Assembly: GCA_963834385.1 (NCBI GenBank)
Contig: CAWIBO010000005.1
Span: 448,001-512,000 of the forward strand
Reading direction: 5' to 3'
DNA: 64,000 nt
Source of the DNA: an uncultured Verrucomicrobiae bacterium
Lineage (GTDB): Bacteria > Verrucomicrobiota > Verrucomicrobiia > Chthoniobacterales > UBA10450
Below, in pieces: positions 3,195 to 43,342 of the stretch. The notes under the pieces are model-generated. The model did no database searches. It was not told the DNA's origin and saw only the letters and a program-made list of their open reading frames with translations. The position numbers were made by a program, and so were the translations under genes. The stretch's first letter is position 1; each line of letters starts with the position of its first letter.

Positions 3195-3197
3195 CTG

Positions 3198-3639: not shown

Positions 3640-3758
3640 AAAGCGTTCCGTAGGGATTGGCGCGGGCGAAGACCGTCGTCCATCCAGTGCGCCGCCGGCC
3701 TTTCAGGAAAAGGGGCGGTCTGGCTTGACCCGCCATGCGCTCCGGTGAACATCGTTCT

Positions 3759-4394
3759 ATGCGCGGCCAGACATTGTGGGAAGGACGATGGATTTTTGCC
3801 GTCCTCGTCGTGCTCACGGTGGTGAGCTGGTTTTTGCTGCCGTGGCTGGCGTTGCTCTGGCTCGCCCTGATCCTCTACACGCTCGCTTTTTTTCGCGACC
3901 CGGAACGGATCGCCCCGCCTGACCCGGACGTGGTCGTGGCCGCGGCCGACGGCGTGGTGGCCGACATCGCGGAGCTGGAGGAACCGGAAGTTCTGAAGGC
4001 GAAGACGCGCCGGGTCGGGATTTTCCTCTCGGTTTTCGACGTGCACACCAACCGCGCGCCGGTGGAAGGCCGGGTGGTGTATCGGCAGCATCGCCGGGGG
4101 CTTTGTCTCGATGCGCGCAGCCTGGACTGCTCGGAAAAGAACGAGGCCATGACCTGGGCGTTCGAGAATCCGCGGGTGACGATCGTGGTGCGCCAGCTGA
4201 CGGGCGCGATTGCCCGGCGGATCGTGGGCTGGTCCCGGGTGGGCGATGAGCTGGCGCGGGGGGAACGTTTCGGAATGATTCGTTTTGGCTCGCGCACGGA
4301 AGTTTATTTGCCGCTGGACGCCACCGTGACGGTGAAAAAAGGCGACCGGGTGGTCGGCGGCCTGACGGTGATTGCGCGTTTGCCCCGGGCCTGA
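3759..4394 (+). CDS. psd: Phosphatidylserine decarboxylase proenzyme
   Basis: FFRDPER, IFLSVFDVHTNRAP and autocleavage motif RFGSR; coupled to pssA. Confidence 0.92.
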   Translation: MRGQTLWEGRWIFAVLVVLTVVSWFLLPWLALLWLALILYTLAFFRDPERIAPPDPDVVVAAADGVVADIAELEEPEVLKAKTRRVGIFLSVFDVHTNRAPVEGRVVYRQHRRGLCLDARSLDCSEKNEAMTWAFENPRVTIVVRQLTGAIARRIVGWSRVGDELARGERFGMIRFGSRTEVYLPLDATVTVKKGDRVVGGLTVIARLPRA

Positions 4395-5218
4395 TGAGCG
4401 ACAACAACCCGAAAATCTACCTGCTGCCGAACCTGATGACGGCGGGGAACCTGTTTTGCGGGTTCGCAGCCACGCTCAAGATTGTGCAGGGCGCTCTCCT
4501 GCAATCGTCCGATCCCGACGCGGCCGCGATCCTTTTCCACACGGCCATCTGGTATATCCTCGGCGCCTGCATCTTTGACCTGCTGGACGGCCGGTTGGCG
4601 CGTTTGGGCGGGCAGGACAGCGCCTTTGGGCGCGAATTCGATTCGCTGGCCGACATTGTCTCGTTCGGGGTGGCGCCGGCGCTCCTGGTTTACCGGATCG
4701 TCCTGCTCGAGTTCCCGCGGGCCGGCTGGGTGGTGGCCTTCATTTATCTTCTTTGCGGCGCGCTGCGCCTCTCCCGTTTCAATGTCATCGCCGCCAGTGG
4801 CGGGCCGGCCTCGGCCGACAAGAACTTCCGCGGCTTCCCGATCCCGGCGGCGGCCGGAGTGATTGCCTCGCTGACCCTGTTTCTGCTTTGGTGGCTGGGG
4901 GAACGCGAGCACGAGATCGGGCGCTGGAAATGGGTTCTGCCTCCGCTGCTTCTCTTCCTTTCCTTCATGATGTTCAGCGGGTTCAAGTATCCCAGCTTCA
5001 AGGGGCTGGGCTGGCGGTCCACCCGTTCGGTCCCGCGTTTCCTTGCCATCATCGTCATCGTCGTGGCGACGGTCATGAACTACGAGTGGATGCCGGCCGT
5101 CCTCTTCATCTCCTACCTTCTCTACGGCTTCGTCCGGCCCTTTATCTCGAAATCGTGGCAGCGCGAGATCGAGGAAGAGATTGGCGACGAACCGATCGAT
5201 CCGCCGGAAAACGCCTGA
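4394..5218 (+). CDS. pssA: CDP-diacylglycerol--serine O-phosphatidyltransferase
   Basis: CDP-alcohol phosphatidyltransferase motif DLLDGRLAR...FGREFDSLADIVSFGVAP. Confidence 0.92.
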   Translation: MSDNNPKIYLLPNLMTAGNLFCGFAATLKIVQGALLQSSDPDAAAILFHTAIWYILGACIFDLLDGRLARLGGQDSAFGREFDSLADIVSFGVAPALLVYRIVLLEFPRAGWVVAFIYLLCGALRLSRFNVIAASGGPASADKNFRGFPIPAAAGVIASLTLFLLWWLGEREHEIGRWKWVLPPLLLFLSFMMFSGFKYPSFKGLGWRSTRSVPRFLAIIVIVVATVMNYEWMPAVLFISYLLYGFVRPFISKSWQREIEEEIGDEPIDPPENA

Positions 5219-5222
5219 AACG

Positions 5223-5246
5223 GCCGGGGGCGCCGCAAGCCCCGGC
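5223..5246. terminator. GC-rich hairpin between convergent pssA and nucleotidyltransferase genes
   Basis: gccgggg...ccccggc stem in a 31-bp convergent gap; no clear U-tract. Confidence 0.3.
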
Positions 5247-5249
5247 GAA

Positions 5250-5967
5250 TCAGGAGAGCGGCTGGTTCAGCCGCGCCAGAATTTCCGGGTCGCGCACATC
5301 GTGCCAGTCGCCGGTGAGCTCGAGGGCCTGGACCCGGCGGCCGGACTGGGCGAGCTCGCGAATCGCGTCCGTCAGCTCGTATTCGCCGCGCGGGGAAGGC
5401 TGGAGCTTCGCCGTGAAGTCAAAAATGCTGCGGCGAAACATGTAGATGCCGGCGTTATACCAGGGGCTGGTCGGCTCGCCCGGTTTCGGTTTTTCGCGGA
5501 GATCGACCAGGTCAAAACGGTCGTTCACAAAAACAGCGCCGCCCTGGCTGACGTCATCGCTTCGTTTCACCGTGACGATGGCCTCGGTTTCCGGGGCAGG
5601 GGAGACAAGCCGGCGATAGTTGGCCGGGTCCACCAGGATGTCGCCATAGCTGAGGAGAAAGGGATCGTCACCGCAGAAGTCGCGGGCCAGTTCGACCACG
5701 CGCCCGGTCCCGTCCTGCACGGCCTGCGTGACATACCGGATCCGCGCCCTGGAAATCCTTTCCCTCGCCGAAATGCTCCTGCACCACCTCCGCGCGCCAG
5801 CCGACCACGATGAGGAAGTCGGTGACGCCGGCGCCGGCCAGGCCCTCGACGATGTGCTGCAGGACGGGCCTGCCGCGCACCGGCAGCATCGGTTTCGGAA
5901 GATCGTCCGTCAGGTTGCGCATGCGGGTCCCGCGACCGGCCGCGAGCAGGACAGCTTTGGTGATCAT
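5250..5967 (-). CDS. Sugar-phosphate nucleotidyltransferase (NTP_transferase family); apparent frameshift near 5750
   Basis: KAVLLAAGRGTRM...PKPMLPV in ORF 5668..6003; QDGTG, LSYGDI and SPRGEYELTDAI in ORF 5250..5720. Confidence 0.88.
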
Positions 5968-5990
5968 GGCAGCACCTGTAAGCCTTTCGA

Positions 5991-6019
5991 TTGCAATTCG
6001 CACGCGCCGGCTTCAATCT
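5991..6019 (+). promoter_or_regulatory. Sigma70-like promoter, leaderless geometry, for the DoxX gene
   Basis: TTGCAA-17 nt-CAATCT, then 7 nt to ATG 6027. Confidence 0.45.
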
Positions 6020-6026
6020 CGCGCGC

Positions 6027-6431
6027 ATGGGTCTCCAGTTCCTCTCCAAATACCGCGAGACCGGCCTGCTCCTTCTCCGTTCCAGCGTCGGCCTTATCCT
6101 CCTCATCCTGACGGCACCTGTCCTCATGGCCGGGAGCGGCGGGTGGCGCCGCTTTGGGAGCGCGCTTCGGCATATCGGCTTTGAATCGAACTACGAGTTC
6201 TGGGGTTTTCTTGGGGTGGTCGGCGCCTGCGCCGCGGGGGTTTTCCTCATCATCGGGCTCTGGTTTCGAGGCGCCGCGCTCGTGGCCCTCTTCATCGCGG
6301 CCATCCATGCCAGCGCGGTCTGGAGCGGCGATCCGCCGCTGCGTCTTCTCCTCGTTCCCCTGGAGTTCTGCCTCCTCCTGGTGGCCCTGATTTTTATCGG
6401 ACCGGGCAAATACAGCGTCGACAAGAACTGA
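6027..6431 (+). CDS. DoxX family membrane protein
   Basis: Four hydrophobic segments, GLLLLR near the N-terminus, C-terminal GPGKYSVD. Confidence 0.8.
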   Translation: MGLQFLSKYRETGLLLLRSSVGLILLILTAPVLMAGSGGWRRFGSALRHIGFESNYEFWGFLGVVGACAAGVFLIIGLWFRGAALVALFIAAIHASAVWSGDPPLRLLLVPLEFCLLLVALIFIGPGKYSVDKN

Positions 6432-20432: not shown

Positions 20433-21166
20433 GCCTGAAGTCGCGCCTGGACGTCGCCCTGGTGGAGCGCGGCCTTTTTGATACCCGCGAGAAGGCGCAG
20501 CGCGCGATCATGGCCGGGAAGGTCAGGGTGAACGACCAGATCGCCGCCAAAGCCTCGCTCACGGTCAGGCGGGAGACGCCCATCGAGGTGGAGCCCGACC
20601 GGGAATTTGTCGGCCGCGGCGGCACCAAGCTGGCGGGGGCCCTGGAGCATTTCGGCCTCGACCCTTCGGGGCAGACCGCCCTCGACATCGGGGCTTCCAC
20701 CGGCGGGTTCACCGATTGCCTGCTGCAACGGGGCGCCGCGCATGTTTATGCGGTGGACGTCGGGCATAGCCAGCTCGCCTGGAAGATCCGGTCGGATCCC
20801 CGGGTGACGGTGCTGGAGAAGGTGAATGCCCGCTATCTTGGCCCGGCTGAAATTCCCGGGCCGATAGACCTCTGCGTGATCGATGTCTCGTTTATCTCGC
20901 TGACTTTGATCTTGCCGCCGGCGCTCCAATTGGTAAGGGCAGGGGGCGTGATCCTGGCCCTGATCAAACCGCAGTTCGAATTGCAGCCCGGCGAGGTCGG
21001 CCGCGGAGGCGTCGTCACCGAGAGCGCGTTCCATGAGAAGGCGGTGCGACGGATCGAGGATTTTTGCGGGAACATTGCCGAGCTCGAAAATAAGGGGGTG
21101 ATCCCGTCGCCCATCACCGGCACCGAGGGGAACCGTGAATTTTTCATATGCCTGCAAAAACAATAG
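20429..21166 (+). CDS. tlyA: TlyA family rRNA (cytidine-2'-O)-methyltransferase
   Basis: S4 domain RLDVALVERG, DIGASTGGFTD, DVSFISL, LIKPQFE, GNREF. Confidence 0.93.
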   Translation: MSLKSRLDVALVERGLFDTREKAQRAIMAGKVRVNDQIAAKASLTVRRETPIEVEPDREFVGRGGTKLAGALEHFGLDPSGQTALDIGASTGGFTDCLLQRGAAHVYAVDVGHSQLAWKIRSDPRVTVLEKVNARYLGPAEIPGPIDLCVIDVSFISLTLILPPALQLVRAGGVILALIKPQFELQPGEVGRGGVVTESAFHEKAVRRIEDFCGNIAELENKGVIPSPITGTEGNREFFICLQKQ

Positions 21167-22007
21167 GGATCATCGCCCATACCGGGAAACCGGGGGTGCA
21201 GGAGCTGGTGGCGCGGCTGGCCGAAGGCTTTGCCCGGGAGAAGATCGAGGTCCTGGTCGAGGACAAAACCGCGGCGGTGGCGGGGCGGGAGGGCGGATTG
21301 CCGATCGGCGAAGTGGGAAAACGGTCCGACCTGCTCGTGGTCCTGGGTGGTGACGGCACCATCCTGAACGCGGTCGGCCGGCTTGGCCCGAACCTGAAAC
21401 CTGTTTTCGGCATCAATATTGGCTCGCTCGGGTTCCTGACCTGCCTCAATTCCGCGTCGGCCGAGGAAGCGGTCGCGGCCATCGCCTCGGAGAAGATCTC
21501 GCTCAGTTCACGGACCCTGCTCAGGGTCGAACTGCCCGGGCGAAAAGAGGAGGCGCTGATCGGCCTGAACGACGCCGTCCTGAGCCGGGGGAAGTTTCGC
21601 GGCTGGTCCGGATGCTGGTGAGCGTGGAGGGCGAGGCGCTGACCGAGTTTAACGCGGACGGGCTGGTTATTGCCACGCCGACCGGTTCCACGGCTTACTC
21701 GTTATCGGCCGGCGGCCCGATCATGTCGCCGGACTCGGGTGTTTTCGTGATCACGCCGATCTGCCCGCATGTTTTGACCAACCGGTCGCTGGTGATCTCC
21801 GAGCGCTCGACCATTGAGGTGCGGGTGACCGAGCGTGATTACCCGGTGTTCCTGAATGTGGACGGGAACGACCCGGTGCGGCTGGAACGGGACGAGATCG
21901 TCCGGATCCGCCGGCACGACCGAAAGCTGGAACTGGCGGCCCTGCCCGGAACCTCCTTCTTCAGCGTGGTCCGCCAGAAGCTGAAGTGGAGCGGAAGCAG
22001 CGTGTAA
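21148..22007 (+). CDS. nadK: NAD kinase; apparent frameshift near 21590
   Basis: LGGDGT, GINIGSLGFL and LNDAV in ORF 21148..21621; DGLVIATPTGSTAYSLSAGGP in ORF 21612..22007. Confidence 0.93.
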
Positions 22008-27083: not shown

Positions 27084-30000
27084 ATGGCTTCCCTGAGCAA
27101 AGACGATCAACTGCGGCTTCTGACCATCATGCTGGAGAGCCGGCATGGCGACCTTCGCGAGCAGAACCTGAACCGGCAGGGCAAAGGGCATTTTCATGTT
27201 TCCGGAATGGGGCACGAGGCGCTTGCGGCCATTTCCTACGCCATGGAGGAGGGGGACTATATCTGCCCCTATTATCGCGACCGTGGGCTGGTCCTGGGGC
27301 GCGGGGTTTCCTCGGCCGATCTCGCCCTCGATTATTTCGCGAAGAAACAGGGGCAAAGCCACGGCCGGCAGATGCCGTCCCATTTCAGCTATGCCTCGCA
27401 CCACATCTGGAGTGTCCCGACGCCGACCGGCGCCCAGCTTTTGCCCGCCTGCGGCATTGCCTGGGGCATTCGGCTCGACGGGAAAAAGAACATCGTCGTA
27501 ACGACGATCGGCGATGCCGCCACCCGCCAGGGCGACTTTTACGAGGCGGTTTGTTTTGCCAAGGAGCGAAAGCTTCCGGTTTTGTTCGTCGTGGAAGACA
27601 ACGGCTACGGCATCAGCAGTCCCACGCGCAAGATCAACCCGCGCGCGCTCGACGTATTGCAGCCGAACGACTGGCGGGAAGTGGACGGGACCGATGTGAA
27701 GGCCGTTTATGAGGCCGGCCAGGAAGCGATGGCGCACATGCGCGCCGGGAAGGGTCCGGTCTTCTTCTGGGTGATGATGGAACGGCTTTCCAGCCATACC
27801 AGTTCCGACGACCAGAAACTTTACCGTTCGGCCGAGGAGCTGGAGACACTCGAGGAACGGGATCCCTTGCGGAAATGGAAGGAACGGCTCATCGCCGACG
27901 GCATCCTCACGGAGGAAGCCTACGCCAGGCTTGACCAGGAAGTGAAGGAACGCATTCGCTCCGAGTTCAGCAGCGCCGAGAAGGCGGAGGACCCCTCAGC
28001 GGATGACCTGGAGCTCGAGGTGCGCGGCGAGTTCGCGGGCAAGGGCGATGAAGTGCTGCCGGCCGGCAAGTATCGGATCGGCGACACCATCAACAAAACG
28101 CTGCATGCCGGGTTGAAGGCCGACTCGGACCGGATCGTCTTCGGCGAAGACATCGAGGACCCGAAAGGCGGCGTCTTCCGCCTGACCCAACGTCTTTCCA
28201 CCGACTTCCCTGAGCAGGTTTTCAATTCTCCGTTGGCGGAGTCAACCATTGTCGGCGTGGCCTGCGGCCTCGCTTCCTATGGAAAACGGCCGGTGTTCGA
28301 GCTGCAATTTATTGATTTCATTGGACCGGCCTGGAATCAGGTGGTGACCAATCTTTCGACCCTGCGCTGGCGTTCCTTTGGCACCTGGAAATGTCCGCTC
28401 GTCATCTATGCGCCCTATGGGGCCTATCTGCCGGGCGGCAGCCTCTGGCACAGCCAGGCCAACGAGGCGCCCCTGGCGCATTTCCCCGGCATCAACGTCG
28501 CCATTCCCAGCACCCCGGCCGACGCCGCCGGCCTGCTCTGGAGCGCGATGCACGCCGAGGACCCAACCTTTATCCTGATCCCCAAGCATCTCCTCTGGGC
28601 CGAACACGAATACGCCGAGCCCATCGAGGCCGTGCCCCTCGGCCAGGCCCGCCACGTCCGGAACGGCCGCGAGGTCACCCTCGTCGGTTGGGGCAACACC
28701 ATCGAGAAAGCGCTCGAGGCGCTGGAAGAAATCGGCGACGACATCAGCATCGATCTGATTGATCTGCGCTCCGTCGCCCCATGGGACCGCGCCGCCGTGG
28801 AACGCTCCGTGCGCAAGACCGGTCGTCTCGTGGTCGTCCAGGAAGACACCGAGAATTGCAGCGTTGGGCAAATGGTCATCTCCCACATCGCCTCGCAGTC
28901 CGAGCTTTGGGAAAGCATGATCAGCCCGCCCGTCTTGGTCAGCAAAGGGAACGTCATGATCGGCTACAACCCGATCTATGAGTATGCCGCGCTGCCGGAC
29001 GTGAAACGGATCGTCGCCGCCGTCCGTCAAAGCATGGAACGGAAGGCGACGCGCCCGGGCGGCACCTCGGCGCCGCCGGCGAAAGAGCCTTCGCGCGAAA
29101 ACACGGCCGGGTCATCGGCCCCGACCAGGGAAGCGACGCCCCCGGCCGCGCCCCCGCAGGAATCCAAACAGCGCGCCCAGACCGTGACGGTGCCGATCAT
29201 GGGAGAAGGCATCCGCAACGCCAAGGTCGTCTCCCTCCTGAAGAAGCCGGGTGATGCGATTGAGCTGGATGATCCGCTCTGCGAACTCGAGACCGACAAG
29301 GCGGTCTATCCGGTTGAATCCTCTTTCGCGGGCGTCATGGGCGATTGGAAAGTAGCCTCGGGCGACACGGTGGAGATCGGCCAGGATCTGGGCACGATCC
29401 TGACGGGGGAATCCGGGTTTGCTGACCAGATGCAGGATGCGGCCGCGGCCTCCCCGGGTCCGAAGGAAAACGGCGCTTCGCAGCAGAGTTCGAGTCGGAT
29501 CCGGCAGCGCGCGAAGTCGGACGGGGTTGAGCCCGCCCTGTCCGCCACGATCACGCGACGACTTTACAGCGTCATTCCGGCGAATCTTCAGATCGACGCG
29601 GAATGGGACGCGATCCGGAAAGCGCGCGAAGCGGCCAAGAAAGACCAGGGTGGAAAAGCCCCCTCCCCGTCGGTCATGGTGGCCTGGGCGGTGACGCGGG
29701 CGATGGAAAAACATGCGCCTTTCCGCCGGCAAATGACGGAGGAGGACCGCATCATTGAAAAGGAGAATTTCGATCTTGGCATTGCGGTGGCGATGGATGA
29801 TGACCGCCTCGCCACGGCCGTGATCGCGGATGCCAACAAAAAGTCGTGGGAGGAGTTCGTGCGCAGCTTCCATGAAACGGTCGAGGAAACACGGCAGGGC
29901 CGGGTGGATGCCATGAACGCGCCGGTGGTCATCAGCAGCCTTGGCGCCTTTGGCGTTCGCGCCGGCGCACCCATCGTGGTGCCGCCTTCGGTCGGGACGC

Positions 30001-30206
30001 TTTTTGTCGGCTCAGCCCATGCCGCCATGGTGGGCGACGGTCGCAAGGCGAGAAACGCGGAGGTCATCACCCTCTCCCTGACCTTTGATCACCGGATTGT
30101 GAATGGCGCGGGCGCGGCCAGTTTCGTCCATGAGATCAAGGAGCTGATCGAAAATTTCCAGCTTCCGGGCGCGAAGAAAAAAGCCGCCGCCAAAAGCAAG
30201 GGCTAG
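27084..30206 (+). CDS. Fused 2-oxoacid dehydrogenase E1alpha-E1beta-lipoyl-E2 acyltransferase (probably branched-chain specific)
   Basis: E1alpha PYYRD, GRQMPSH, GDAATRQG...EDNGYGIS, HTSSDD; E1beta FGEDI, NSPLAES, ELQFIDF, IDLRS; lipoyl ETDKA; E2 LGIAVA, ISSLG, LTFDHRIVNG; all in one uninterrupted ORF. Confidence 0.9.
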   Translation: MASLSKDDQLRLLTIMLESRHGDLREQNLNRQGKGHFHVSGMGHEALAAISYAMEEGDYICPYYRDRGLVLGRGVSSADLALDYFAKKQGQSHGRQMPSHFSYASHHIWSVPTPTGAQLLPACGIAWGIRLDGKKNIVVTTIGDAATRQGDFYEAVCFAKERKLPVLFVVEDNGYGISSPTRKINPRALDVLQPNDWREVDGTDVKAVYEAGQEAMAHMRAGKGPVFFWVMMERLSSHTSSDDQKLYRSAEELETLEERDPLRKWKERLIADGILTEEAYARLDQEVKERIRSEFSSAEKAEDPSADDLELEVRGEFAGKGDEVLPAGKYRIGDTINKTLHAGLKADSDRIVFGEDIEDPKGGVFRLTQRLSTDFPEQVFNSPLAESTIVGVACGLASYGKRPVFELQFIDFIGPAWNQVVTNLSTLRWRSFGTWKCPLVIYAPYGAYLPGGSLWHSQANEAPLAHFPGINVAIPSTPADAAGLLWSAMHAEDPTFILIPKHLLWAEHEYAEPIEAVPLGQARHVRNGREVTLVGWGNTIEKALEALEEIGDDISIDLIDLRSVAPWDRAAVERSVRKTGRLVVVQEDTENCSVGQMVISHIASQSELWESMISPPVLVSKGNVMIGYNPIYEYAALPDVKRIVAAVRQSMERKATRPGGTSAPPAKEPSRENTAGSSAPTREATPPAAPPQESKQRAQTVTVPIMGEGIRNAKVVSLLKKPGDAIELDDPLCELETDKAVYPVESSFAGVMGDWKVASGDTVEIGQDLGTILTGESGFADQMQDAAAASPGPKENGASQQSSSRIRQRAKSDGVEPALSATITRRLYSVIPANLQIDAEWDAIRKAREAAKKDQGGKAPSPSVMVAWAVTRAMEKHAPFRRQMTEEDRIIEKENFDLGIAVAMDDDRLATAVIADANKKSWEEFVRSFHETVEETRQGRVDAMNAPVVISSLGAFGVRAGAPIVVPPSVGTLFVGSAHAAMVGDGRKARNAEVITLSLTFDHRIVNGAGAASFVHEIKELIENFQLPGAKKKAAAKSKG

Positions 30207-31465: not shown

Positions 31466-32230
31466 CTAATCCTGCCAGTTCGGGGGCCGCTTTTCGAGAA
31501 AAGCCGAGACTCCCTCGCTCGCCTCCGGCGATTCGCGCGCGGTCATGTGGTGTCGGAGGGCCGCCTCCACGTCCTCGCGCACCGTGCTTGACCAGAGTTC
31601 CTCGATGAGCCGTTTGCTGCTGGCCATGGCCATGGGCGCACCGAGCAGCGCCCGCTCGACAATCTCCTGCACCGCGGCTTCCAGCCTCTCCGCCTCCACC
31701 ACCCGGTTGACCAGGCCCATCGCGCGCGCGCGTTCCGCGTCGATCAGTTCAGCCTCAAGCAGCAGTTCGCGCAGGTCGCGTTCCCGCAACTGGCGCCGGA
31801 GAAAAGTCATGACCAGTCCGGCGACGAGCCCGCGCCGGACCTCCGGGTAACCAATCCGGGTGCCCGCCGCCGCCACCACGAAATCACAGGCAGACATCAG
31901 GCCGGCCCCGCCCGCGACAGCCGCGCCGTGCACGGCGGCGATCGTAACCAGCCTCGTCTCCGCCAGCGCCAGCAAAACAGCCGCCACCGCCTCGCCCGAA
32001 GCGTGGGCTTTTTCCTTCTGCGCGGTTTCCTTGAGATCGAGCCCGGCGCAAAAGGCGGGCCCGGCCCCGCGCAGGATCAGGACGCGCTGCCTGGGATCGC
32101 TCTCCGCGGTCTGCACCGCTTCGGTCAGGTTCGTCATCAACTCGATGGTGAGCGCGTTACGACGCTCCGGGCGATTCAAGGTCAGAACCGTGACCTGGGG
32201 AGTTTGTTTTTCGACGAGGACGACAGACAT
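31466..32230 (-). CDS. Enoyl-CoA hydratase/isomerase (methylglutaconyl-CoA hydratase-like)
   Basis: LNRPERRNAL, FCAGLDL, AVAGGAGL, PEVRRGL, AFLEKRPP; flanked by leucine-catabolism genes. Confidence 0.88.
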   Translation of the reverse strand: MSVVLVEKQTPQVTVLTLNRPERRNALTIELMTNLTEAVQTAESDPRQRVLILRGAGPAFCAGLDLKETAQKEKAHASGEAVAAVLLALAETRLVTIAAVHGAAVAGGAGLMSACDFVVAAAGTRIGYPEVRRGLVAGLVMTFLRRQLRERDLRELLLEAELIDAERARAMGLVNRVVEAERLEAAVQEIVERALLGAPMAMASSKRLIEELWSSTVREDVEAALRHHMTARESPEASEGVSAFLEKRPPNWQD

Positions 32231-32261
32231 GCTTTACTTTAGCCCGCCCAGTAATCCCGTC

Positions 32262-33119
32262 ATGACCCGATCCGTCAAGCTCATCGAATGTCCACGCGAC
32301 GCGTGGCAGGGGTTGGCGCATCTCATCCCGACGGAAAGAAAGGCGGAATATTTGCGCGCGCTGGTCGAAGCAGGATTTCGTCACCTTGATGCGGTCAGCT
32401 TTGTTTCGCCGAAGGCGGTGCCGCAGATGGCCGACAGCGAAGAAGTGCTGAAGCTGCTCGGCCGGCCGGCTGGGGTCGAGGTGATCGGCATTGTGGTGAA
32501 CGAGAAAGGCGCGGAGCGCGCGATCAGCACCGGAGCGGTGAGCACGCTCGGTTATCCGTTCTCGATATCCGGGACGTTTCTCCAGCGCAACCAGAAGCAG
32601 ACGCGGGCGGAAAGTGAGAAAATGCTGGAGCGCATCCGGCACCTGGCCGCGGACGCCGGGCTGCAAACGGTGGCCTACATTTCCATGGCCTTCGGCAATC
32701 CCTACGGTGACCCCTGGGACGAGGGGGCCGTGGCCGATGCCGTCCGCCTGCTCGCGAGCTTCGGCGTGGAGGCCATTTCGCTCGCCGACACGGTGGGCGC
32801 GGCCGGGGAGGACCTGATCCGGCGGGTGGTGGAGCGCGCCCTGCCCGAGTGCGGGAACAGCGAACTCGGTGTGCACCTGCACAGCCGCGCGGGAGAAGCG
32901 CGATCGCGGATCCTGGCCGCCTATGATGCGGGCTGCCGCCGTTTCGACTCGGCCCTGGGGGGACTGGGCGGCTGCCCGTTCGCGCAGGACTCGATGGTGG
33001 GAAACATTCCGACGGAAGAATTGCTGGGCGCGCTTCGGGATCGCAACGCCGTGCCTGATCCAGAGCCCGACCTGGGCCCGGCGATCACCTTGAATCGGGA
33101 GATTGCGGGCGTTGCCTAG
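32262..33119 (+). CDS. Hydroxymethylglutaryl-CoA lyase
   Basis: ECPRDAWQG, SFVSPKAVPQMAD, LADTVG, HLH, GLGGCPFA. Confidence 0.92.
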   Translation: MTRSVKLIECPRDAWQGLAHLIPTERKAEYLRALVEAGFRHLDAVSFVSPKAVPQMADSEEVLKLLGRPAGVEVIGIVVNEKGAERAISTGAVSTLGYPFSISGTFLQRNQKQTRAESEKMLERIRHLAADAGLQTVAYISMAFGNPYGDPWDEGAVADAVRLLASFGVEAISLADTVGAAGEDLIRRVVERALPECGNSELGVHLHSRAGEARSRILAAYDAGCRRFDSALGGLGGCPFAQDSMVGNIPTEELLGALRDRNAVPDPEPDLGPAITLNREIAGVA

Positions 33120-34744
33120 ACCTGGACCACGCCGGTATGGAAACGCGCCCGCGGCATCGGGCGGGAGACATACTCAAGCAGACGGTCGAGGACGTCGCGC
33201 GTCTCGTGCGGCTGAATGATGGCGTCGATCCAGCCGCGCGCGGCGCCGTAGCGCACATCGGTCTGTTCCTCGTAGGAACGTTTTACCCGGGCGCGCAGTT
33301 CCTCGAGCTCCTCCGGCGATGACTTTTTGTCGCCGCGGTCGCGGGCTCGCGCGAGGATGCTGAAAACCGTGTCGGACGCCTGGGCCGCGCCCATGACGGC
33401 ATAACGGGCGTTGGGCCAGGCAATGAGAAAGCGCGGGTCGTAGGCCTTGCCGCAGAGGGCATAGTTGCCGGCACCAAAGGAACCGCCCACCACCACGGTG
33501 ATTTTCGGAACCACGGAATTGCTGACCGCGTTGACCAGCTTGGCCCCGCTCCGGATGATCCCGCTCTGTTCCGCGTCCTTTCCGACCATGAACCCGGTGA
33601 CATCCTGGAAAAAAATGATCGGAAGACCGGTCTGGTTGCAATCCATCACAAAACGCGCCGCCTTGTCGGCGCTGTCGGCATAGATCACGCCGCCCATCTG
33701 GATGCCTTCCTTTTTCGTTCGCACCTGCAGGCGCTGGTTCGCCACGATGCCAACCGGCCGGCCGCCGATCCGGGCGTAGGCGGTCACCAGCGTCTTGCCG
33801 TAGTCCGCCTTGTATTCGTCCAGGGAATCGGGGTCAATTACCGTGGCAAGCAGATCGCGCATGTCGTACGGCTTGGACCCGTCGGCGCTGATCAACTCGT
33901 AAACCGTCGCGGGATCCTTGCCTGGACCGGTGTTTTTTGCGGGAGCCTTCGTCTTCTTCGCCTGCTCGGCTTCGGGCAACAGCGCCATGAGCGAACGAAT
34001 CCGTTTCAGGCAGGAAGGATCATCCTTCTCGTAAAAATCGACCGTGCCGCTGATCTCCGAGTGCATGTGCGCCCCGCCCAGTTCCTCGGCTTCCACGATC
34101 TGCCCGATGGCCGCCTTGACCAGCGACGGCCCGGCAAGGTAAAGGCCGCTTCCCTGCGTCATCAGGATTTTGTCGCACAAGACCGGGAGGTAGGCGCCGC
34201 CGGCGACGCAGTTGCCCATGATGGCGGCAAACTGCGGGATGCCCGCGGCGGAAATGACGGAGTTATTGCGAAAGATGCGCCCGAAATCGTCTTCATCGGG
34301 AAAAATCTCGTCCTGCAGGGGGAGGAACACGCCGGCGGAATCGACCAGGTAAATCAGCGGAAGATTGCTCTCGAAGGCGACGCGCTGGGCCCGGATGAGT
34401 TTCTTGGCCGTCTGGGGAAAGAAGGCCCCGGCTTTCACACTGGCGTCGTTGGCCACGATCATGCAGGGAACACCCGAGACCCGGCCAATGCCGGCGACGG
34501 CGCCGGCGGCGGGGACGCTGCCCCAATCCGGATACATTTTGTAGGCGGCCCAGAGGCCGAGCTCGAAGAAAGGGGTGTTTTTATCGAGCAACAAAGCCAG
34601 GCGCTCGCGGGCGCTAAGGCGGCCGAGTTTGTGCTGGCGTTCCTGGCCAGCCTTGCCCCCACCTTCGCGCAGGAGAGCTTCCTCCTTGGCGATGGCGGCG
34701 CAGACGTCGCGCAAGCTGGTCTTGGGTGCGGAAGCAGAGGCCAT
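33116..34744 (-). CDS. Acyl-CoA carboxylase beta subunit (methylcrotonyl-CoA carboxylase-like)
   Basis: ARERL, LVDSAGVFLPLQ, MGNCVAGGAY, QDVTGFMVG, GSFGAGNY. Confidence 0.9.
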   Translation of the reverse strand: MASASAPKTSLRDVCAAIAKEEALLREGGGKAGQERQHKLGRLSARERLALLLDKNTPFFELGLWAAYKMYPDWGSVPAAGAVAGIGRVSGVPCMIVANDASVKAGAFFPQTAKKLIRAQRVAFESNLPLIYLVDSAGVFLPLQDEIFPDEDDFGRIFRNNSVISAAGIPQFAAIMGNCVAGGAYLPVLCDKILMTQGSGLYLAGPSLVKAAIGQIVEAEELGGAHMHSEISGTVDFYEKDDPSCLKRIRSLMALLPEAEQAKKTKAPAKNTGPGKDPATVYELISADGSKPYDMRDLLATVIDPDSLDEYKADYGKTLVTAYARIGGRPVGIVANQRLQVRTKKEGIQMGGVIYADSADKAARFVMDCNQTGLPIIFFQDVTGFMVGKDAEQSGIIRSGAKLVNAVSNSVVPKITVVVGGSFGAGNYALCGKAYDPRFLIAWPNARYAVMGAAQASDTVFSILARARDRGDKKSSPEELEELRARVKRSYEEQTDVRYGAARGWIDAIIQPHETRDVLDRLLEYVSRPMPRARFHTGVVQV

Positions 34745-37438: not shown

Positions 37439-37516
37439 GATTGCTACGGGGAAGGCTCTCCAGGCGAGCGGCGGCGGGTGTCGGCGTGGCAGGAGACCTG
37501 CTTTGTGGAAATTTTA

Positions 37517-40500
37517 ATGTCTCCGGATTCCTCTCCTCTTGCCACGGGTCGTCAGCGCGAAGGTCTTCCGGTCACCCGCCGCGCTCTTTCCTGGCTCTTC
37601 AGCCAGGAACATTTCGGGGTGAAACTGTTCTCGGGCACGGCGGTGGCGGTGATCGTCATCGTGGCCATGGCGGCAATCTTCGGGCTCGTCTCCTATCGCA
37701 CGCATCATCACGAGGAACTGCGCGCCCAGACGACCGAGGTGATCCGGCTGAGCGCAATCCTCGAGAACGACATCAGCGTCCTGGAGACGAGTTACCGGGG
37801 ATTCCTCCTCTCGGGACAGAAACCATACCTGGCGCCGTTCGAGACGCGCCGGCCGCTTCTGCAGGAACACGTGGCGGAGCTGGTGGCTCGCATTGTCGAC
37901 AACCAAAGCCAGCGGAAACGCATTCTCAAGGTCCAGGACCTCGTCCAGAAATGGGTTAACACCGTGGCCACGCCGGGCATCGAGGCCCGCCAACGGGGCG
38001 GGGCCGTCACGGCCGAGGCCATCGAGGACCTGCTCGACCAGGCCCGCGCGCTCCTCAAGTCGATCCAGAGCGAGGAGCGCGTCGTCCTGAACGAACGGAT
38101 GCGCGAGCATGAGTGGGCCGCCCAGTCTTCCCAGATCCTCGATTACATTCCAAAGCTCGAGCATTCCGTCATCCAGATGGAAAACGCCAAACGCGCCTTT
38201 CTTCTCACGGCCAAACCGCATCTGACGGAGACCTACACCGCGGGCGTGGCTGATTTCTACACCGTGCATGGCCTCCTGAGCATGCTCATCGCCACCAACC
38301 CCGGCCAGATGGAGATGTTAAACGGGATCAAGGCGCAGGTGCAGCAATGGATCAACGAATCGGCCATCCCGGAAATTGACGCGCGCCGGAACGGACGCGA
38401 CATCGCGCCGATGCTCGCCACGCAGCGTGGACAGACGCTGATGACCGGCGTGCGCGCGGCCATCTCGAAATTCGAGCAGACCCAGCTCAAACTCTTTGAA
38501 GAACGGGCCGCGGCCACGAAAAAGGCGCGCATCTGGAAGACCGGCGCGCTCGGCGCGGTGGCCTGCCTCGCCGCCATCCTCCTGGCGCTCTCCAGCAGCT
38601 ACAGTTTTGTCCTCAGCCGCCGCCAGCTCTCCAAGCTCGAAGGCGCCGATGTCCGCATCCGCTCCATCATCGAGAACATCCTTGATGGCATGATCACGGT
38701 GGACCAGGACGGCACCATTTGTTCCATGAACCCGGCGGCGGAAAAAATGTTTGGCTGCATCAACAACGAGATGGTCGGCCACAAGTTCATCAAGCTGGTC
38801 CCGAAATCATACAGCGCCGACCCGGAGGCCGAACCGGTCCCGTGCGCCTGGAACCAGATTGCGCGCCGGACCGGCTCCACCACCCTGGCTGTGGGACGAA
38901 CCCGCAAGCACGCCACTTTCCCGATCGAAATTTCGCTCAGCGAGATGACCGTCGACCGTCAGATCCTTTATGTGGCCATGATCCGCGACGTCACGGAACG
39001 GAAACGGTTTGAGGGGGAAATCGCGGCCGAGAAGGAGAGCCTCGCCGTCACCCTGCGCTCGATCGGCGACGGCGTCATCACCACCGATGTGCAGGGCCGC
39101 ATCATCATGATCAACAAGGCGGGCGAGAACCTGACCGGTTGGCCCTCGAGCGAGGCCATCGGCCAGCCGCTCAAATCGGTTTTCAACGTCACGATCGACC
39201 TCGCCGCGCAGGCTCGCACCCAGCGGAGCGGCTACCGCAGCGAAGCCCACTCCATTCTCCTGAACCTTCCCGAAAACGCCACCCTGACCGCGCGGGACAC
39301 GACCGAACGGGTGATCGAGCAGGTCGCCTCCCCCATCCGCGACCCGAAGAACGAAGTGGCTGGCGTCGTGCTCGTCTTCCGCGACATCACCGAGCGGCAG
39401 CGCAACGAGGCGGAACGGCGCAAGGCCGAGACCCTCGAGCAGCTCGGGTTGCTCGCCGGCGGCATCGCGCACGACTTCAACAATCTTCTCACCGCCATCA
39501 TCGGCAACATCTCCCTCGCCTCGCTCCTCCTCCCGCCCAGCGACGAGATGGCCACCCGCCTGAACGACGCCAAGAACGCCTCCATGCGCGCGCGCGACCT
39601 GGCCCAGCAGCTTCTCACCTTTGCCCGCGGCGGCGCCCCCATCAAAAAGACCGCCTCCATCGGCAAACTCATCCAGGACACGGTCAGCTTCTCCCTGCGC
39701 GGATCGCACAGCCGGAGCGAGTTCAATTTCGGTTCGGAACTCTGGCCGGCCGAGATCGACCCCGGCCAGATCAGCCAGGTCGTGGCCAATCTCGTGGTCA
39801 ACGCCGACCAGGCCATGCCGCAGGGCGGGACCCTGCGGGTCACCTGCGACAACTTCGTTTACAACCCGGAACAGCAGGCGGCCATCGCCGACCTCATGCC
39901 CGGTGATTACGTCCGCATCATCCTGAAGGATGAAGGCGTCGGCATCCCGGAAAATTACCTCAAGCGCATCTTTGATCCCTATTTCACCACCAAGGCCAAG
40001 GGCAACGGCCTCGGGCTGGCCACGACCTATTCCATCATCAAGAATCACAACGGCCTCATCACCGTCGATTCCGAGGTGCACAATGGGACCACCTTCACCA
40101 TCTACCTGCCGGCCAGCAGCGAGATCGAGGTCCCGGCCGAAACCGTGCAGGTCTCGCCCGAGAGCATCTCCGGGACCGGCAGCATCCTCGTGGTCGATGA
40201 TGAGGAAGCCATCCGCGCCCTGGTCGAGTTCACCCTCTCCCGGTTGGGTTACGAGGTGGCCGAGGCGGAGACCGCCCTGGCCGGCGTCGAGCTTTACCGT
40301 GAACGACTCGAGGCCGGGAAACGCTTTGACCTTGTCATCCTCGACCTGACCCTCCCCGGCGGCATGGGCGGAAAAGAGGCGCTCAAGCGCCTGATTGAGA
40401 TTGATCCGACGGTGAATGCCATCGTCTCCAGCGGCTACGCCATGGACGCCACCATGAGCCGTTACCAGGATTACGGGTTCCGCGGCGTCATCGCGAAGCC

Positions 40501-40609
40501 CTACGAGGCGGCGGAACTCGGCCGGGTGGTGCACGACGCCATCGCCGCCGGCCGGATCAACGTGGTGGAAGACTTCGAAGGCGGCCGGCTCGCCACCCGC
40601 GTGGCCTGA
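37517..40609 (+). CDS. Hybrid sensor histidine kinase (TM, two CHASE3, TM, two PAS, HisKA, HATPase, receiver)
   Basis: ETSYRGFLLSG and ENAKRAFLLTA; NPAAEKMF; AGGIAHDFNNLL; NLVVNA; DEGVG; GNGLGL; ILVVDDE...ILDL. Confidence 0.93.
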   Translation: MSPDSSPLATGRQREGLPVTRRALSWLFSQEHFGVKLFSGTAVAVIVIVAMAAIFGLVSYRTHHHEELRAQTTEVIRLSAILENDISVLETSYRGFLLSGQKPYLAPFETRRPLLQEHVAELVARIVDNQSQRKRILKVQDLVQKWVNTVATPGIEARQRGGAVTAEAIEDLLDQARALLKSIQSEERVVLNERMREHEWAAQSSQILDYIPKLEHSVIQMENAKRAFLLTAKPHLTETYTAGVADFYTVHGLLSMLIATNPGQMEMLNGIKAQVQQWINESAIPEIDARRNGRDIAPMLATQRGQTLMTGVRAAISKFEQTQLKLFEERAAATKKARIWKTGALGAVACLAAILLALSSSYSFVLSRRQLSKLEGADVRIRSIIENILDGMITVDQDGTICSMNPAAEKMFGCINNEMVGHKFIKLVPKSYSADPEAEPVPCAWNQIARRTGSTTLAVGRTRKHATFPIEISLSEMTVDRQILYVAMIRDVTERKRFEGEIAAEKESLAVTLRSIGDGVITTDVQGRIIMINKAGENLTGWPSSEAIGQPLKSVFNVTIDLAAQARTQRSGYRSEAHSILLNLPENATLTARDTTERVIEQVASPIRDPKNEVAGVVLVFRDITERQRNEAERRKAETLEQLGLLAGGIAHDFNNLLTAIIGNISLASLLLPPSDEMATRLNDAKNASMRARDLAQQLLTFARGGAPIKKTASIGKLIQDTVSFSLRGSHSRSEFNFGSELWPAEIDPGQISQVVANLVVNADQAMPQGGTLRVTCDNFVYNPEQQAAIADLMPGDYVRIILKDEGVGIPENYLKRIFDPYFTTKAKGNGLGLATTYSIIKNHNGLITVDSEVHNGTTFTIYLPASSEIEVPAETVQVSPESISGTGSILVVDDEEAIRALVEFTLSRLGYEVAEAETALAGVELYRERLEAGKRFDLVILDLTLPGGMGGKEALKRLIEIDPTVNAIVSSGYAMDATMSRYQDYGFRGVIAKPYEAAELGRVVHDAIAAGRINVVEDFEGGRLATRVA

Positions 40610-40622
40610 TCCTCCGGCAATC

Positions 40623-42527
40623 CTACTTCTCCGGCTTCAACCGGGGCAGCAGTTCTTCCAGGATGGTGGCAACGGACTCCGAGACGCTTTGGCGGTGTGT
40701 CTGCACCACCACTTCGGCGTCGTCCGGCGCCTCATAGGGCGCGTCGATCCCGGTGAACTCCCGGATCTTTCCCGCGCGCGCCTTCTCATAGAGCTTCTTC
40801 GGGTCGCGCTCCTCGCAGACCGCGAGGGGAGCATCGACAAAGACCTCGAAAAACTCGGCGCCCCCCTCGAGCGCGATTTCGCGGGCGCGCCGCCGATCGT
40901 GCCGGTAAGGCGAAATGAAGGCGGTTACGACAATGATTCCCGAGTCCGCCATGAGGCGGGCCACTTCCGCGACCCGGCGGATGTTCTCGACGCGGTCTTC
41001 CGGTGAGAAGCCAAGGTTCGAGTTGAGGCCGTGGCGGACATTGTCGCCGTCGAGCACATAGGTATTCATGGCGCGGCGGAAGAGCTCGGCCTCGAGGGCC
41101 TGCGCGATGGTCGACTTGCCCGCGCCGGAAAGGCCGGTCAGCCAGACGACGGCGCCATGATGGCCATTGTGCCGCGCCCGGTCGCCCGGGGTGATCTTGC
41201 CCTCGGTCCAGAAGATGTTCTTGCTCTTGACCTCCGTTCGGTCGGTGTAAACGCCGCCAAAGACGATGCCGCCGCCGCCGATCCGGTTGTTCTGGACGAG
41301 AACGAACCGGCCGAGCTGCGGGATGCGGTCGTGGTTGTCGAGCACAAGGGGCGCGCGCGTCTGGATGGTGATGCGGCCAATTTCGTTCCGCGCCACTTCC
41401 GTGGCCGCCTTGCCGGAGGAGGCGAGGGTGGCGGAATCGATCACTTCCTCGATGGAAACGACCCGGCAGACGAGTTCCTGCGTCCCAAGCCGAAGGTGAT
41501 AATTCTGGTCGCAGCGCAGGGGCGTCGGGGAAATCCAGAAGATGTCGGCGTGGAACCGGTTGGTCTCGATCGGCGTCTCCTTCTCGTGTGAAGCCACGAA
41601 ACCGCGTTCGACGAAAATCTGCTCCCCCAGGGTGATGCCGGCCGAGTCCCCCGCCCGCACTTCCTCCGGGGCGTCGCCGTTCCAGCGCTCGATCGTTTTC
41701 ACCACGGCCTGCTTGTTTGCCGGCGAAAAGATGACCTGGTCCCCCACCCGCAGACGCCCCGTCTCGACCCGGCCCGCAATGATGCGGCGCTCGTCGAACC
41801 GGTAGACATCCTGCACACAGAACCGCAGGGGCAGCTCGGTCGATGAACCTTTGGCCGTGAGGTCGTCGAAAGCCTCGAGGATGGTCGGGCCCTTGTACCA
41901 CGCCATCTTTTCCGCGCTCCTCCGCGCCACGTTCTCGCCTTCGCGGGCCGAGACCGGCACAAAGACGCGCGGATCGAGCTTCAAACCGCCGAGAAACTCG
42001 CGGTATTCCCGCTCGATCTCGCGGAACCGTTCCTCAGCGTAGCCGACGAGGTCCATTTTGTTCACCGCCACCACGATCTGCTCGATCCCAAGCAGGCTGA
42101 GCAGATACGCGTGCCGCCGACTCTGCTCGCGGATTCCCTCGTTGGCGGCAATGAGCAGGATGGCGGCGTCGGCCGTGGACGCCCCGGTGATCATGTTCTT
42201 GAGGAACTCCTTGTGCCCGGGCGCGTCGATGATGACGTACTGGCGGCGCGGTGTCCGGAACGGGATCTGCGTCGTGTCGATGGTGATGTTCTGTTCCTGT
42301 TCCTCCAGGAGCGCATCGAGGAGAAAGGCGAACTCGAAGTCCATGCCCTCGGCCGCGGCCGCTTTCTGCACCGCCTCGATCTTGCCTTCCGGCAACGAAT
42401 CGGTGTCGTGCAGGATGCGGCCGATCAGGGTCGATTTGCCGTGATCGACATGGCCGACGAAAACGACCTGGAGCCGGGGCGATTCCCCGCGGCCCGCCGA
42501 ATCGATGGCTGTTCTACCCGCCGCCAT
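40623..42527 (-). CDS. cysNC: Bifunctional sulfate adenylyltransferase subunit 1 / adenylylsulfate kinase
   Basis: GHVDHGKST, DAPGH and NKMD GTPase motifs; C-terminal WLTGLSGAGKST, LDGDNVR, FISPY. Confidence 0.95.
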   Translation of the reverse strand: MAAGRTAIDSAGRGESPRLQVVFVGHVDHGKSTLIGRILHDTDSLPEGKIEAVQKAAAAEGMDFEFAFLLDALLEEQEQNITIDTTQIPFRTPRRQYVIIDAPGHKEFLKNMITGASTADAAILLIAANEGIREQSRRHAYLLSLLGIEQIVVAVNKMDLVGYAEERFREIEREYREFLGGLKLDPRVFVPVSAREGENVARRSAEKMAWYKGPTILEAFDDLTAKGSSTELPLRFCVQDVYRFDERRIIAGRVETGRLRVGDQVIFSPANKQAVVKTIERWNGDAPEEVRAGDSAGITLGEQIFVERGFVASHEKETPIETNRFHADIFWISPTPLRCDQNYHLRLGTQELVCRVVSIEEVIDSATLASSGKAATEVARNEIGRITIQTRAPLVLDNHDRIPQLGRFVLVQNNRIGGGGIVFGGVYTDRTEVKSKNIFWTEGKITPGDRARHNGHHGAVVWLTGLSGAGKSTIAQALEAELFRRAMNTYVLDGDNVRHGLNSNLGFSPEDRVENIRRVAEVARLMADSGIIVVTAFISPYRHDRRRAREIALEGGAEFFEVFVDAPLAVCEERDPKKLYEKARAGKIREFTGIDAPYEAPDDAEVVVQTHRQSVSESVATILEELLPRLKPEK

Positions 42528-43342
42528 TACATGAAACCCTTGGCGCGCAGCTTTTGCATGGCGTTGCGCTCGTGATGGTCCTGCGCGCGGCCGGCCCGCT
42601 CGCTCGTTTTCGTGATTTCCAGCTCGGCAATGATCTCTTCGATCGTCGCGGCCGTGCTCGCCACGTCCTTCGTGATCGGACGGCAGCCCAGCGATCGGTA
42701 GCGGCGGCCGTTTCGCGCGAAATACATCTGCGGGATGGGAATCTTCTCGCGCTCGATGTAGCGCCAGATATCCACCTCCGTCCAGTCGAGCAGCGGCTGC
42801 ACCCGGACATGTTCCCCGGGCGCGGCCGCGGAGGCGAACTGCCCCCAGAATTCCGGCGGCTGGTCCTTGTACTCCCACTCGAACTGCGCGTTCCGCGGTG
42901 AAAAATAGCGCTCCTTCGCCCGGGTCGGGTCCTCGTCGCGACGAATGCCGGTGATGAGGGCGTCGAACTTGTGCTCGGACAGCACCTGCTGCAACGCCAC
43001 CGTCTTCAGCTCGTGCGTCACCGTCACCGGGTCATGCGTCTCGTAGCCGATGCCGCGGGCCCGGGCCTCGGTGTTGATCTTCACCATGAGGTTGAGCTTG
43101 TAATGCCCGGTGGCCCATTCCCGGAACTCGAGCATCTCCGGGAACTCGTAGGTGGTGTCGATGTGCAGGACGGGGAACGGGATCTTTCCGAAAAATGCGC
43201 GCATCGCCAGCCAGATCAGGACGTTGGAGTCCTTCCCCATCGACCAGGGCATGGCGATGTTCTTGAACGAGTGGTAGGCCTCGCGAAAAATGAAGACACT
43301 CTGGTTCTCCAGCTGGTCGAGATGGCTGCGGATCGGGGTCAT
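42527..43342 (-). CDS. cysD: Sulfate adenylyltransferase subunit 2
   Basis: [35 protein letters not shown]. Confidence 0.95.

Follow-up and report, generated by a model that had tools for sequence, protein, structure and literature searches.

A single gene at positions 27084-30206 of the forward strand of the DNA analysed here encodes the E1alpha, E1beta, lipoyl and E2 acyltransferase modules of a 2-oxoacid dehydrogenase in one polypeptide. This DNA, referred to below as the window, is a stretch of 64,000 nucleotides from an uncultured Verrucomicrobiae bacterium of soil (contig CAWIBO010000005.1, positions 448,001 to 512,000). The 2-oxoacid dehydrogenase complexes are multi-subunit assemblies in which E1 and E3 are attached to a 24- or 60-mer E2 core by means of one small domain, the peripheral subunit-binding domain (PSBD). 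To our knowledge, the only well-studied exception to this E2-core paradigm is the actinobacterial OdhA/trimeric-E2p system, which overturned it. The single-chain E1-lipoyl-E2 protein described here is real, conserved and apparently complete, and we consider it probable from its sequence features that it makes up two-thirds of a working 2-oxoacid dehydrogenase complex and is served by E3 in trans. Its architecture seems never to have been studied before. An earlier note on this DNA, made from the letters alone, had left room for a biochemical characterization that already existed; no paper describing an E1alpha-E1beta-lipoyl-E2 single chain was found in the literature outside subscription journals.

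The source assembly comprises 2.9 Mb in five contigs and is 89.6% complete. On translation, the gene (27084..30206, +) gives 1040 codons and a stop, with no interruption. The stop-to-stop frame begins at 26919, and the alignment with relatives starts at the methionine at 27084. The earlier note had claimed all modules and their motifs for one open reading frame (ORF), and the domain-architecture search that it proposed matched each of the five expected Pfam families on the protein. The E1alpha module is an E1_dh domain at residues 17-304 (27132..27995, +; 7e-57). It is followed by the pyrimidine-binding domain of E1beta, Transket_pyr, at residues 334-504 (28083..28595, +; 1.3e-26), and by the E1beta C-terminal domain, Transketolase_C, at residues 520-610 (28641..28913, +; 2.4e-22). 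A Pro/Ala/Ser-rich linker (linker 1, residues 658-694; 29055..29165, +), variable in alignments, leads to a Biotin_lipoyl domain at residues 700-772 (29181..29399, +; 1.7e-15), whose lipoyl-lysine, K739 of the ETDKA motif, is encoded at 29298-29300 (+). A second linker (linker 2, residues 776-814; 29409..29525, +) occupies the place of the PSBD in canonical E2s and precedes the E2 catalytic domain, 2-oxoacid_dh, at residues 814-1026 (29523..30161, +; 1.8e-36). After the F-x-L-P-G end of that domain, the chain closes with a Lys/Ala-rich C-terminal tail (residues 1029-1040; 30168..30203, +). Translation also located the motifs named in the earlier note: GDAATRQG...EDN at 143-173, HTSSDD at 238-243, ETDKA at 736-740 and DHRIVNG at 1002-1008.

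An AlphaFold2 model of the full chain has a mean predicted local distance difference test (pLDDT) score of 81.6 and a predicted template modelling score (pTM) of 0.70. Values of pLDDT below 50 occur only in the two linkers (residues 658-694 and 776-814) and in three loops, and the E1beta part is folded up to about residue 655. The alpha and beta part of the model superposes on single-chain transketolase and on the KGD SucA domain over about 700-780 columns, and the beta part alone reaches a Foldseek TM score of 0.93 on the target when compared with Thermus thermophilus E1b-beta (1um9_B). In NCBIfam, the chain matches only models related to pyruvate dehydrogenase (PDH), 2-oxoglutarate dehydrogenase (OGDH) and branched-chain 2-oxoacid dehydrogenase (BCKDH), all far under their curated cut-offs; the top score is that of TIGR03181, with 224 bits against a cut-off of 411. 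Since every score lies below its cut-off, the protein is best viewed as a superfamily member that has diverged, not as an equivalog of a named enzyme.

Conservation of the catalytic residues was assessed in an alignment of 54 sequences that are 45-73% identical to the window protein. The residues that bind thiamine diphosphate (ThDP) and magnesium, G143, D172 and N173, are invariant within the GDA (143-145) ... EDN (171-173) motif, as are H238, D242 and D243 of the HTSSDD loop, the catalytic loop that holds His238. The E1beta stretch N381-x-P-x-A-E386-S-T is likewise invariant; we take E386 to be the ThDP-activating glutamate. In the lipoyl turn E736, K739 and A740 are invariant and T737 and D738 are at least 90% conserved. 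The acyltransferase motif retains D1002, H1003, N1007 and G1008 in all sequences, and S952 is at least 90% conserved. The variant form of this motif, DHRxxNG, is shared with the E2p of Azotobacter vinelandii (DHRVING) in their alignment. The chain therefore possesses the E1alpha ThDP motif, the E1beta domains and the lipoyl DKA turn of complexes with an alpha/beta-type E1, together with the catalytic histidine and serine of an E2. The genes for lipoylation, lipA (383.6 bits; cut-off 310.25) and lipB (161.8 bits; cut-off 83.55), are present elsewhere in the genome.

It should be noted that several genes in the same assembly are read in two or more frames. These are the NAD kinase gene in the window (21148-22007), the C-terminus of lpd, the gene for E3 (contig 5, 34886-36278), a PDH E2 gene (contig 1, 183029-183711) and an E1beta gene on contig 3 (326600-327383), the last in three frames. 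Such genes are either products of indel errors or pseudogenes, and for this reason a fusion made by an indel, which erased a stop and a start between separate E1 and E2 genes, needed consideration. Apart from the multi-frame genes themselves, this explanation can draw on the fact that linker 1 lies outside the coverage of public contigs. It is opposed by the relatives. All 120 matches listed by a protein search, which come from independent assemblies, contain the same five Pfam domains in 1015-1058 residues at 71-74% identity. A single frame is open across the whole match in 12 of 12 loci fetched from a sample of the phylum, where internal stops occur only at the C-terminus, at the point where the tail of the window protein overshoots theirs. 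A second locus set gave a single spanning ORF in 17/17 cases. Among 70 named loci, 53 have a single ORF from query residue 40 or earlier to residue 1015 or later; of the other 17, 15 are cut by contig ends, one is missing 62 residues at the N-terminus and one is split into three, with breaks inside the E1alpha and E2 domains. None of the 70 loci is broken within a linker, and the stop and restart in a linker that the earlier note had named as the sign of an artefact is thus not seen in the relatives.

Coverage of the linkers by public sequence data, another check proposed in the earlier note, was obtained for one linker of the two. A 429-nt contig from a public soil metagenome spans 29169-29579 with 0 gaps and bridges linker 2; linker 1 (29055-29165) is uncovered. 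The data are Logan contigs from three runs of a single soil-metagenome study, which cover 16, 7 and 7 of 30 bins, and the best-covering run may be the window's own source sample. The bridging contig is an independent short-read contig. No RNA run containing the gene is listed among the public datasets. Because relatives share both the unbroken ORF and the five domains, the fusion is not an assembly artefact. An artefactual origin is extremely improbable and, in our opinion, effectively refuted; separate E1alpha, E1beta and E2 subunits are replaced here by one conserved ORF.

Full-length matches to the fused protein were found in 38 of 301 sampled genomes of the phylum, the window's own included, at 47-100% identity, and all 38 fall within the window's own class. 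Judged by record titles, the carriers comprise Chthoniobacterales (including Candidatus Udaeobacter and 'Spartobacteria'), Opitutales (Lacunisphaera, Opitutus, Didemnitutus and Oleiharenicola), and Puniceicoccales and Coraliomargarita. Public annotation labels the proteins 'thiamine pyrophosphate-dependent enzyme' or '2-oxoisovalerate dehydrogenase E1 component'. Two contigs labelled Polaribacter sp. and Candidatus Dormiibacterota also hold fused genes, 48% and 67% identical to that of the window, respectively; these contigs are probably mis-binned rather than evidence of gene transfer.

The second defining property of the protein is what it lacks. The earlier note recognized no PSBD, and this absence was borne out in each analysis. 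Pfam found no E3_binding match on the whole protein at E<=0.01, nor on the linker alone (residues 768-826) at E<=0.05. Linker 2, at pLDDT below 50 over residues 776-814, contains no folded element in the AlphaFold2 model. Both linkers vary in length and sequence without a conserved column, linker 2 being variable in 22 of 22 aligned relatives. Thus, no PSBD stands between the lipoyl domain and the catalytic core. The E2s of the same genome's OGDH (sucB) and PDH match E3_binding with 54.8 and 61.5 bits, and the separate E2s of relatives with 43.9-65.9 bits.

Nor is a gene for E3 found nearby. As the earlier note had stated, the window has no lpd, the sole match being a 34-residue flavin adenine dinucleotide (FAD) motif at 61483-61584. 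The genome does contain one lpd that passes its cut-off (contig 5, 34886-36157; TIGR01350, 521.2 bits against 408.8). It directly follows sucA-sucB (contig 5, 30.7-36.3 kb), 440 kb from the fused gene, and reads in two frames near its C-terminus. E3 is therefore available to the complex from elsewhere in the genome. Of 108 related loci, none has an lpd next to the fused gene, which counts against the use of E3 that our interpretation assumes; when the Lpd of this genome served as tblastn query on 109 related loci, the sole match was in a locus (L128) outside the fused clade. The earlier note regarded the recruitment of E3 as unexplained. Its premise, the missing PSBD, holds, but the difficulty was overstated, since a bona fide lpd lies beside sucAB and docking is not required. 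In the glycine cleavage system, E3 reoxidizes the lipoyl H-protein in the absence of a PSBD, and stable docking of E3 is therefore not a chemical requirement. The other job of the PSBD, in complexes of the alpha2beta2 type, is to hold E1. A covalent tether makes this job redundant, and we infer that the fusion led to the loss of the PSBD and that E3 acts in trans.

How such chains might assemble is a separate question. One consequence, stated in the earlier note, is immediate: a single chain fixes the ratio of E1alpha, E1beta and E2 at 1:1:1. The note also expected a non-canonical assembly, and this expectation is plausible in view of the altered E2 C-terminus and the predicted trimer. The homotrimer prediction for three copies of residues 812-1040 scored 0.93, against 0.00 for the best of three controls. 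The mark set for such scores, calibrated on two copies, not three, was attained by 20 of the 30 solved pairs and by 1 of the 23 single chains. Contact agreement in the predicted trimer is at least 96% and the partner pLDDT at least 87, and His1003 contacts residues 962-964 of the adjoining copy. Since E2 trimers have already been solved, the prediction may reflect memory.

Members of the fused family end in ...IE(N/G)-F-x-L-P-(G/A), followed by a tail of 0-12 variable residues. The canonical ending, ...E-x-P-x-L-M/L-L-V/I, was seen in three of five aligned canonical E2s, while the genome's own sucB and the E2 encoded on contig 3 end otherwise. The fused C-terminus is about one residue shorter than the canonical one and keeps hydrophobic residues at Phe1025 and Leu1027. 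The E2 domain as a whole is strongly diverged: it scores 73-126 bits in Pfam, against 157-284 bits for the canonical E2s examined, and the stem branch of the fused clade in the E2 tree has a length of 3.86 changes per column. Divergence of this degree makes an altered E2 activity possible, which is a point against a functional acyltransferase.

These features can be read in two ways. According to Bruch et al. (preprint, 10.1101/2020.07.24.212647), the C-terminal 3_10 helix makes the trimer-trimer contacts in all classical cores, and every E2 known before the actinobacterial E2p formed cores of the 24- or 60-mer type. The fused E2 might likewise build a classical core through its C-terminal knob and socket, with the tethered E1 on the outside and E3 bound to an unrecognized site. 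We give this reading somewhat less than an even chance. It accords with the trimer interface kept in the prediction, with a C-terminus only about one residue short whose Phe1025 and Leu1027 are hydrophobic, and with the uniform precedent of the E2s just mentioned. It has to contend with the replacement of the P-x-L-M-L-V ending by F-x-L-P-G, with tails of 0-12 residues that vary within the family, and with the fact that neither linker contains a conserved candidate site for E3. Moreover, the same study reports that small C-terminal changes, or possibly a leftover tag, accompany a trimeric state (10.1101/2020.07.24.212647): a three-residue, Phe-containing insertion before the 3_10 helix locks actinobacterial E2p as trimers, and a leftover C-terminal tag may explain the trimeric crystal form of an otherwise cubic E2b.

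A trimer-limited E2 is thus plausible for the fused family, given its altered C-terminus and its divergence. If E2 is limited to trimers, the presence of dimerizing and trimerizing modules in one chain would lead to small closed particles or to lattices. On this basis we tentatively propose, as a possibility to which we assign distinctly less than an even chance, a new geometry without a large E2 core, in which E2 stops at trimers, E1 dimers cross-link them into such particles or into open lattices, and an undocked E3 services the lipoyl arms by collision, as the L-protein services the H-protein. One example would be a particle of two trimers bridged by three E1 dimers, that is, six chains of about 680 kDa in total.

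The four catalytic and carrier modules of the window protein, with their motifs, are also found in the complexes with a heterotetrameric E1, namely BCKDH and PDH of the Gram-positive type, as represented by 1UM9, Geobacillus stearothermophilus E1p (1W85) and human BCKDH (1DTW). Unlike in these complexes, all modules are in one polypeptide here, the PSBD is absent, the E2 C-terminus is non-canonical and the E2 domain has diverged far beyond the canonical E2s encoded in the same genomes. Actinobacterial OdhA/KGD (8P5T, 2XT6) is likewise a natural fusion of an E2-type and an E1-type enzyme in one chain. Its E2-like domain is N-terminal, however, whereas that of the fused protein is C-terminal; its E1 is of the homodimeric E1o type rather than alpha/beta; and OdhA is not known to have a lipoyl domain of its own. 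Sequence similarity between the two is limited to the E2 domain (38 bits), and the window protein is not of the OdhA/KGD type, with an NF008907 score of 64.7 bits, from the E2 part only, against a cut-off of 878. The OdhA/KGD fusion has been linked to an atypical, non-core architecture (10.1101/2020.07.24.212647).

Closer relatives share the junction of E1alpha and E1beta. Short E1alpha-beta fusions of about 680-790 residues occur in Chlamydiota, in Neomarinimicrobiota and in one sampled Verrucomicrobiota genome (G004), but they end after E1beta. In the G004 locus (L041, 4810-8455, -), a fusion in a 791-residue frame is followed by a separate E2 of 425 residues with overlapping stop and start. 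This E2 keeps its PSBD (E3_binding, 5.6e-11), and its C-terminus begins E-G-F as in the fused family; the arrangement is possibly an intermediate form, to judge by these sequence features. A further family has the E1alpha-beta-lipoyl front part in common with the window protein at 32-35% identity, but its C-terminal module is a FabH-type condensing enzyme instead of an E2 acyltransferase. It is represented by six loci (L035-L040, from genomes G089, G203, G023, G246, G104 and G062) and by three from metagenome-assembled genomes (MAGs) of Spirochaetes (L123, L125 and L127). The ORFs measure 1115-1521 residues. A FabH-type beta-ketoacyl-acyl-carrier-protein synthase III (KAS III) is C-terminal in 9 of 9 examined, and in all nine its catalytic Cys, His and Asn align with those of the genome's own FabH. 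Most of these proteins carry a short, conserved D-P-G-T-P-V-like motif in the linker ahead of the FabH domain. No paper on the E1alpha-E1beta-lipoyl-FabH architecture was found in the literature outside subscription journals. In one further locus (L047 of G117, 2733-6050, -), a frame with E1alpha, E1beta and a lipoyl domain ends a few residues past the lipoyl domain.

The relationships among these forms were examined in an E1beta tree of 48 rows, built by a quick IQ-TREE search with SH-aLRT support only. The fused-E2 proteins (25 rows) form one clade with a support of 100. The G004 fusion adjoins it on a long branch with a weak support of 85. Next out, at 99, is the clade of FabH-containing proteins, from other Verrucomicrobiota classes and Spirochaete MAGs, and then, again at 99, the short fusions of Chlamydiota and Neomarinimicrobiota. 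With the root placed on separate E1betas, an imperfect root that leaves two outgroup rows on the wrong side, the alpha-beta fusion would predate either C-terminal addition. In the E2-domain tree, which includes one spurious antisense ORF row (L020_1498_4644_+), the G004 E2, the contig-3 E2, the other canonical E2s and the fused clade form a polytomy.

With regard to the substrate, the most likely function is that of a branched-chain 2-oxoacid dehydrogenase acting on the 2-oxoacids from Leu, Ile and Val, an assignment from sequence comparison and gene inventory that we hold to be somewhat better than an even bet. The inventory of the genome is the first argument. It has an OGDH (an E1o with an OxoGdeHyase_C domain, plus sucB) and a PDH that passes its curated cut-offs (E1alpha, 458.5 against 393.85 bits; E1beta, 466.9 against 321). 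In all of five near-complete relatives, four of them single-contig, there are exactly two canonical E2s and the fused one, which by exclusion suggests that in these five the third classical complex is represented by the fused protein. Second, among solved structures both E1 halves are closest to the BCKDH E1 of T. thermophilus, 1UM9 (143.4 bits for E1alpha with 1UM9_A, 197 bits for E1beta).

The neighbouring genes provide the third argument. A crotonase-family enoyl-CoA hydratase (31466..32230, -; ECH_1, 5.4e-51), no more than 4 kb from the fused gene in 10/70 loci, is a candidate methylglutaconyl-CoA hydratase. A gene resembling 3-hydroxy-3-methylglutaryl-CoA (HMG-CoA) lyase (32292..33119, +; HMGL-like, 8.2e-21) is near the fused gene in 9/70 loci and scores 194.8 bits with NF004283, under the cut-off of 246. 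A 542-residue acyl-CoA carboxyltransferase similar to the beta subunit of methylcrotonyl-CoA carboxylase (33116..34744, -; Carboxyl_trans, 4.6e-140) is present in 8/70 loci and is 80% identical and syntenic in genomes of the same family. The three genes lie 1.3-4.5 kb downstream of the fused gene, with synteny in two same-family genomes, and as identified by these domain matches the trio is a signature of leucine catabolism. Beyond the window's own family, no synteny with the window neighbours was found. In loci of the Opitutaceae type, a FadB-like hydratase/dehydrogenase is nearby (15/70 loci), directly upstream in both loci inspected.

Two details of this neighbourhood may be added. The listed ORF of the HMG-CoA-lyase-like gene, 31860-33119 (+), overlaps the opposite-strand crotonase gene (31466-32230, -) by about 370 nt; homology to the lyase begins at about residue 145, and the true start is therefore probably near 32290. 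The sole biotin-carboxylase domain in the genome lies at 52255-52575 (-) of the window. With only one biotin carboxylase, the carboxyltransferase is without a dedicated alpha subunit and may share it.

Several observations weigh against a branched-chain substrate. The catabolic genes of the window are on other strands, with a tetratricopeptide repeat (TPR) gene in between, and thus do not share an operon with it. No metabolic neighbours are seen in four loci from a third family of the class (L029-L032). The top NCBIfam matches of the E1 part are PDH models, all under their cut-offs, and the E2 domain is closest, among solved structures, to the E2p of PDH (65.5 bits, against 49 bits for the E2b of BCKDH). 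Finally, a further canonical set of E1alpha, E1beta and E2 genes on contig 3 (L015, 325201-328400, -), beside a NifU-like gene, could itself be the BCKDH. The PSBD of its E2 matches only weakly (21.1 bits, below cut-off), and the E1beta gene is the one read in three frames mentioned above.

The same observations permit a reading in which the fused complex is real but acts on another substrate, as a second PDH or as a dehydrogenase for 2-oxobutyrate, acetoin or some other 2-oxoacid, with the contig-3 set serving as BCKDH. It would fit with the PDH E1alpha and E1beta models at the top of the NCBIfam list and with an E2 domain nearest to the E2p of Escherichia coli and A. vinelandii. The contig-3 E1alpha, too, finds its best match in Thermus BCKDH (113.4 bits), and thrC and aspartokinase genes, conserved upstream in 26/70 and 22/70 loci, might point to a connection with the metabolism of threonine and 2-oxobutyrate. 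We nevertheless consider it rather unlikely. The PDH scores in question are far under their cut-offs, a PDH that passes them is already present in the genome, the five near-complete relatives have no fourth E2 that could serve as BCKDH, and genes of leucine catabolism or beta-oxidation accompany the fused gene in two lineages. A branched-chain 2-oxoacid dehydrogenase remains our preferred assignment.

Two other large genes farther along the window appear ordinary. One (37478-40609, +) encodes a hybrid sensor kinase of 1043 residues with CHASE3, PAS, HisKA, HATPase and receiver domains, and the other (40623-42878, -) a CysN/CysC-type fusion of a sulfate adenylyltransferase GTPase and an adenosine 5'-phosphosulfate (APS) kinase.

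Taken as a branched-chain enzyme with E3 in trans, the protein could work as follows. The N-terminal 655 residues would form the fused E1alpha-E1beta, presumably dimerizing like an alpha2beta2 E1, and would decarboxylate the 2-oxoacid with the help of ThDP and Mg2+. The acyl group would pass to the lipoyl group on Lys739, whose domain is suspended between two linkers of about 40 residues predicted to be disordered. The lipoyl domain would then deliver it to the C-terminal E2, a predicted trimer with His1003 at the subunit interface, for transfer to CoA. The reduced lipoyl group would be reoxidized in trans by the genome's Lpd, which would require no docking domain; tethering of E1 presumably made the PSBD dispensable and so allowed its loss. 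The acyl-CoA made by the enzyme would feed catabolism and might also prime the synthesis of branched fatty acids.

The protein is a natural chain in which E1 is hard-wired to E2, the lipoyl arm is kept and the binding domain is discarded. Such a chain allows the requirements of substrate channelling for the parts of the classical architecture to be tested in a second, independent natural case. It also offers a direct test of the need for E3 docking and a compact template for engineering. Should the geometry without a large core prove true, the fused family and its FabH-containing sister would together represent a lineage of E1alpha-beta-lipoyl 'cassettes' in which the C-terminal acceptor module has been exchanged. 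For the organisms themselves, the fused protein is, by exclusion, the sole possible complex of the branched-chain type in all five near-complete relatives checked. Its properties would therefore bear on amino-acid catabolism, and possibly on branched-chain lipid synthesis, in two orders that include Candidatus Udaeobacter, which are abundant soil bacteria.

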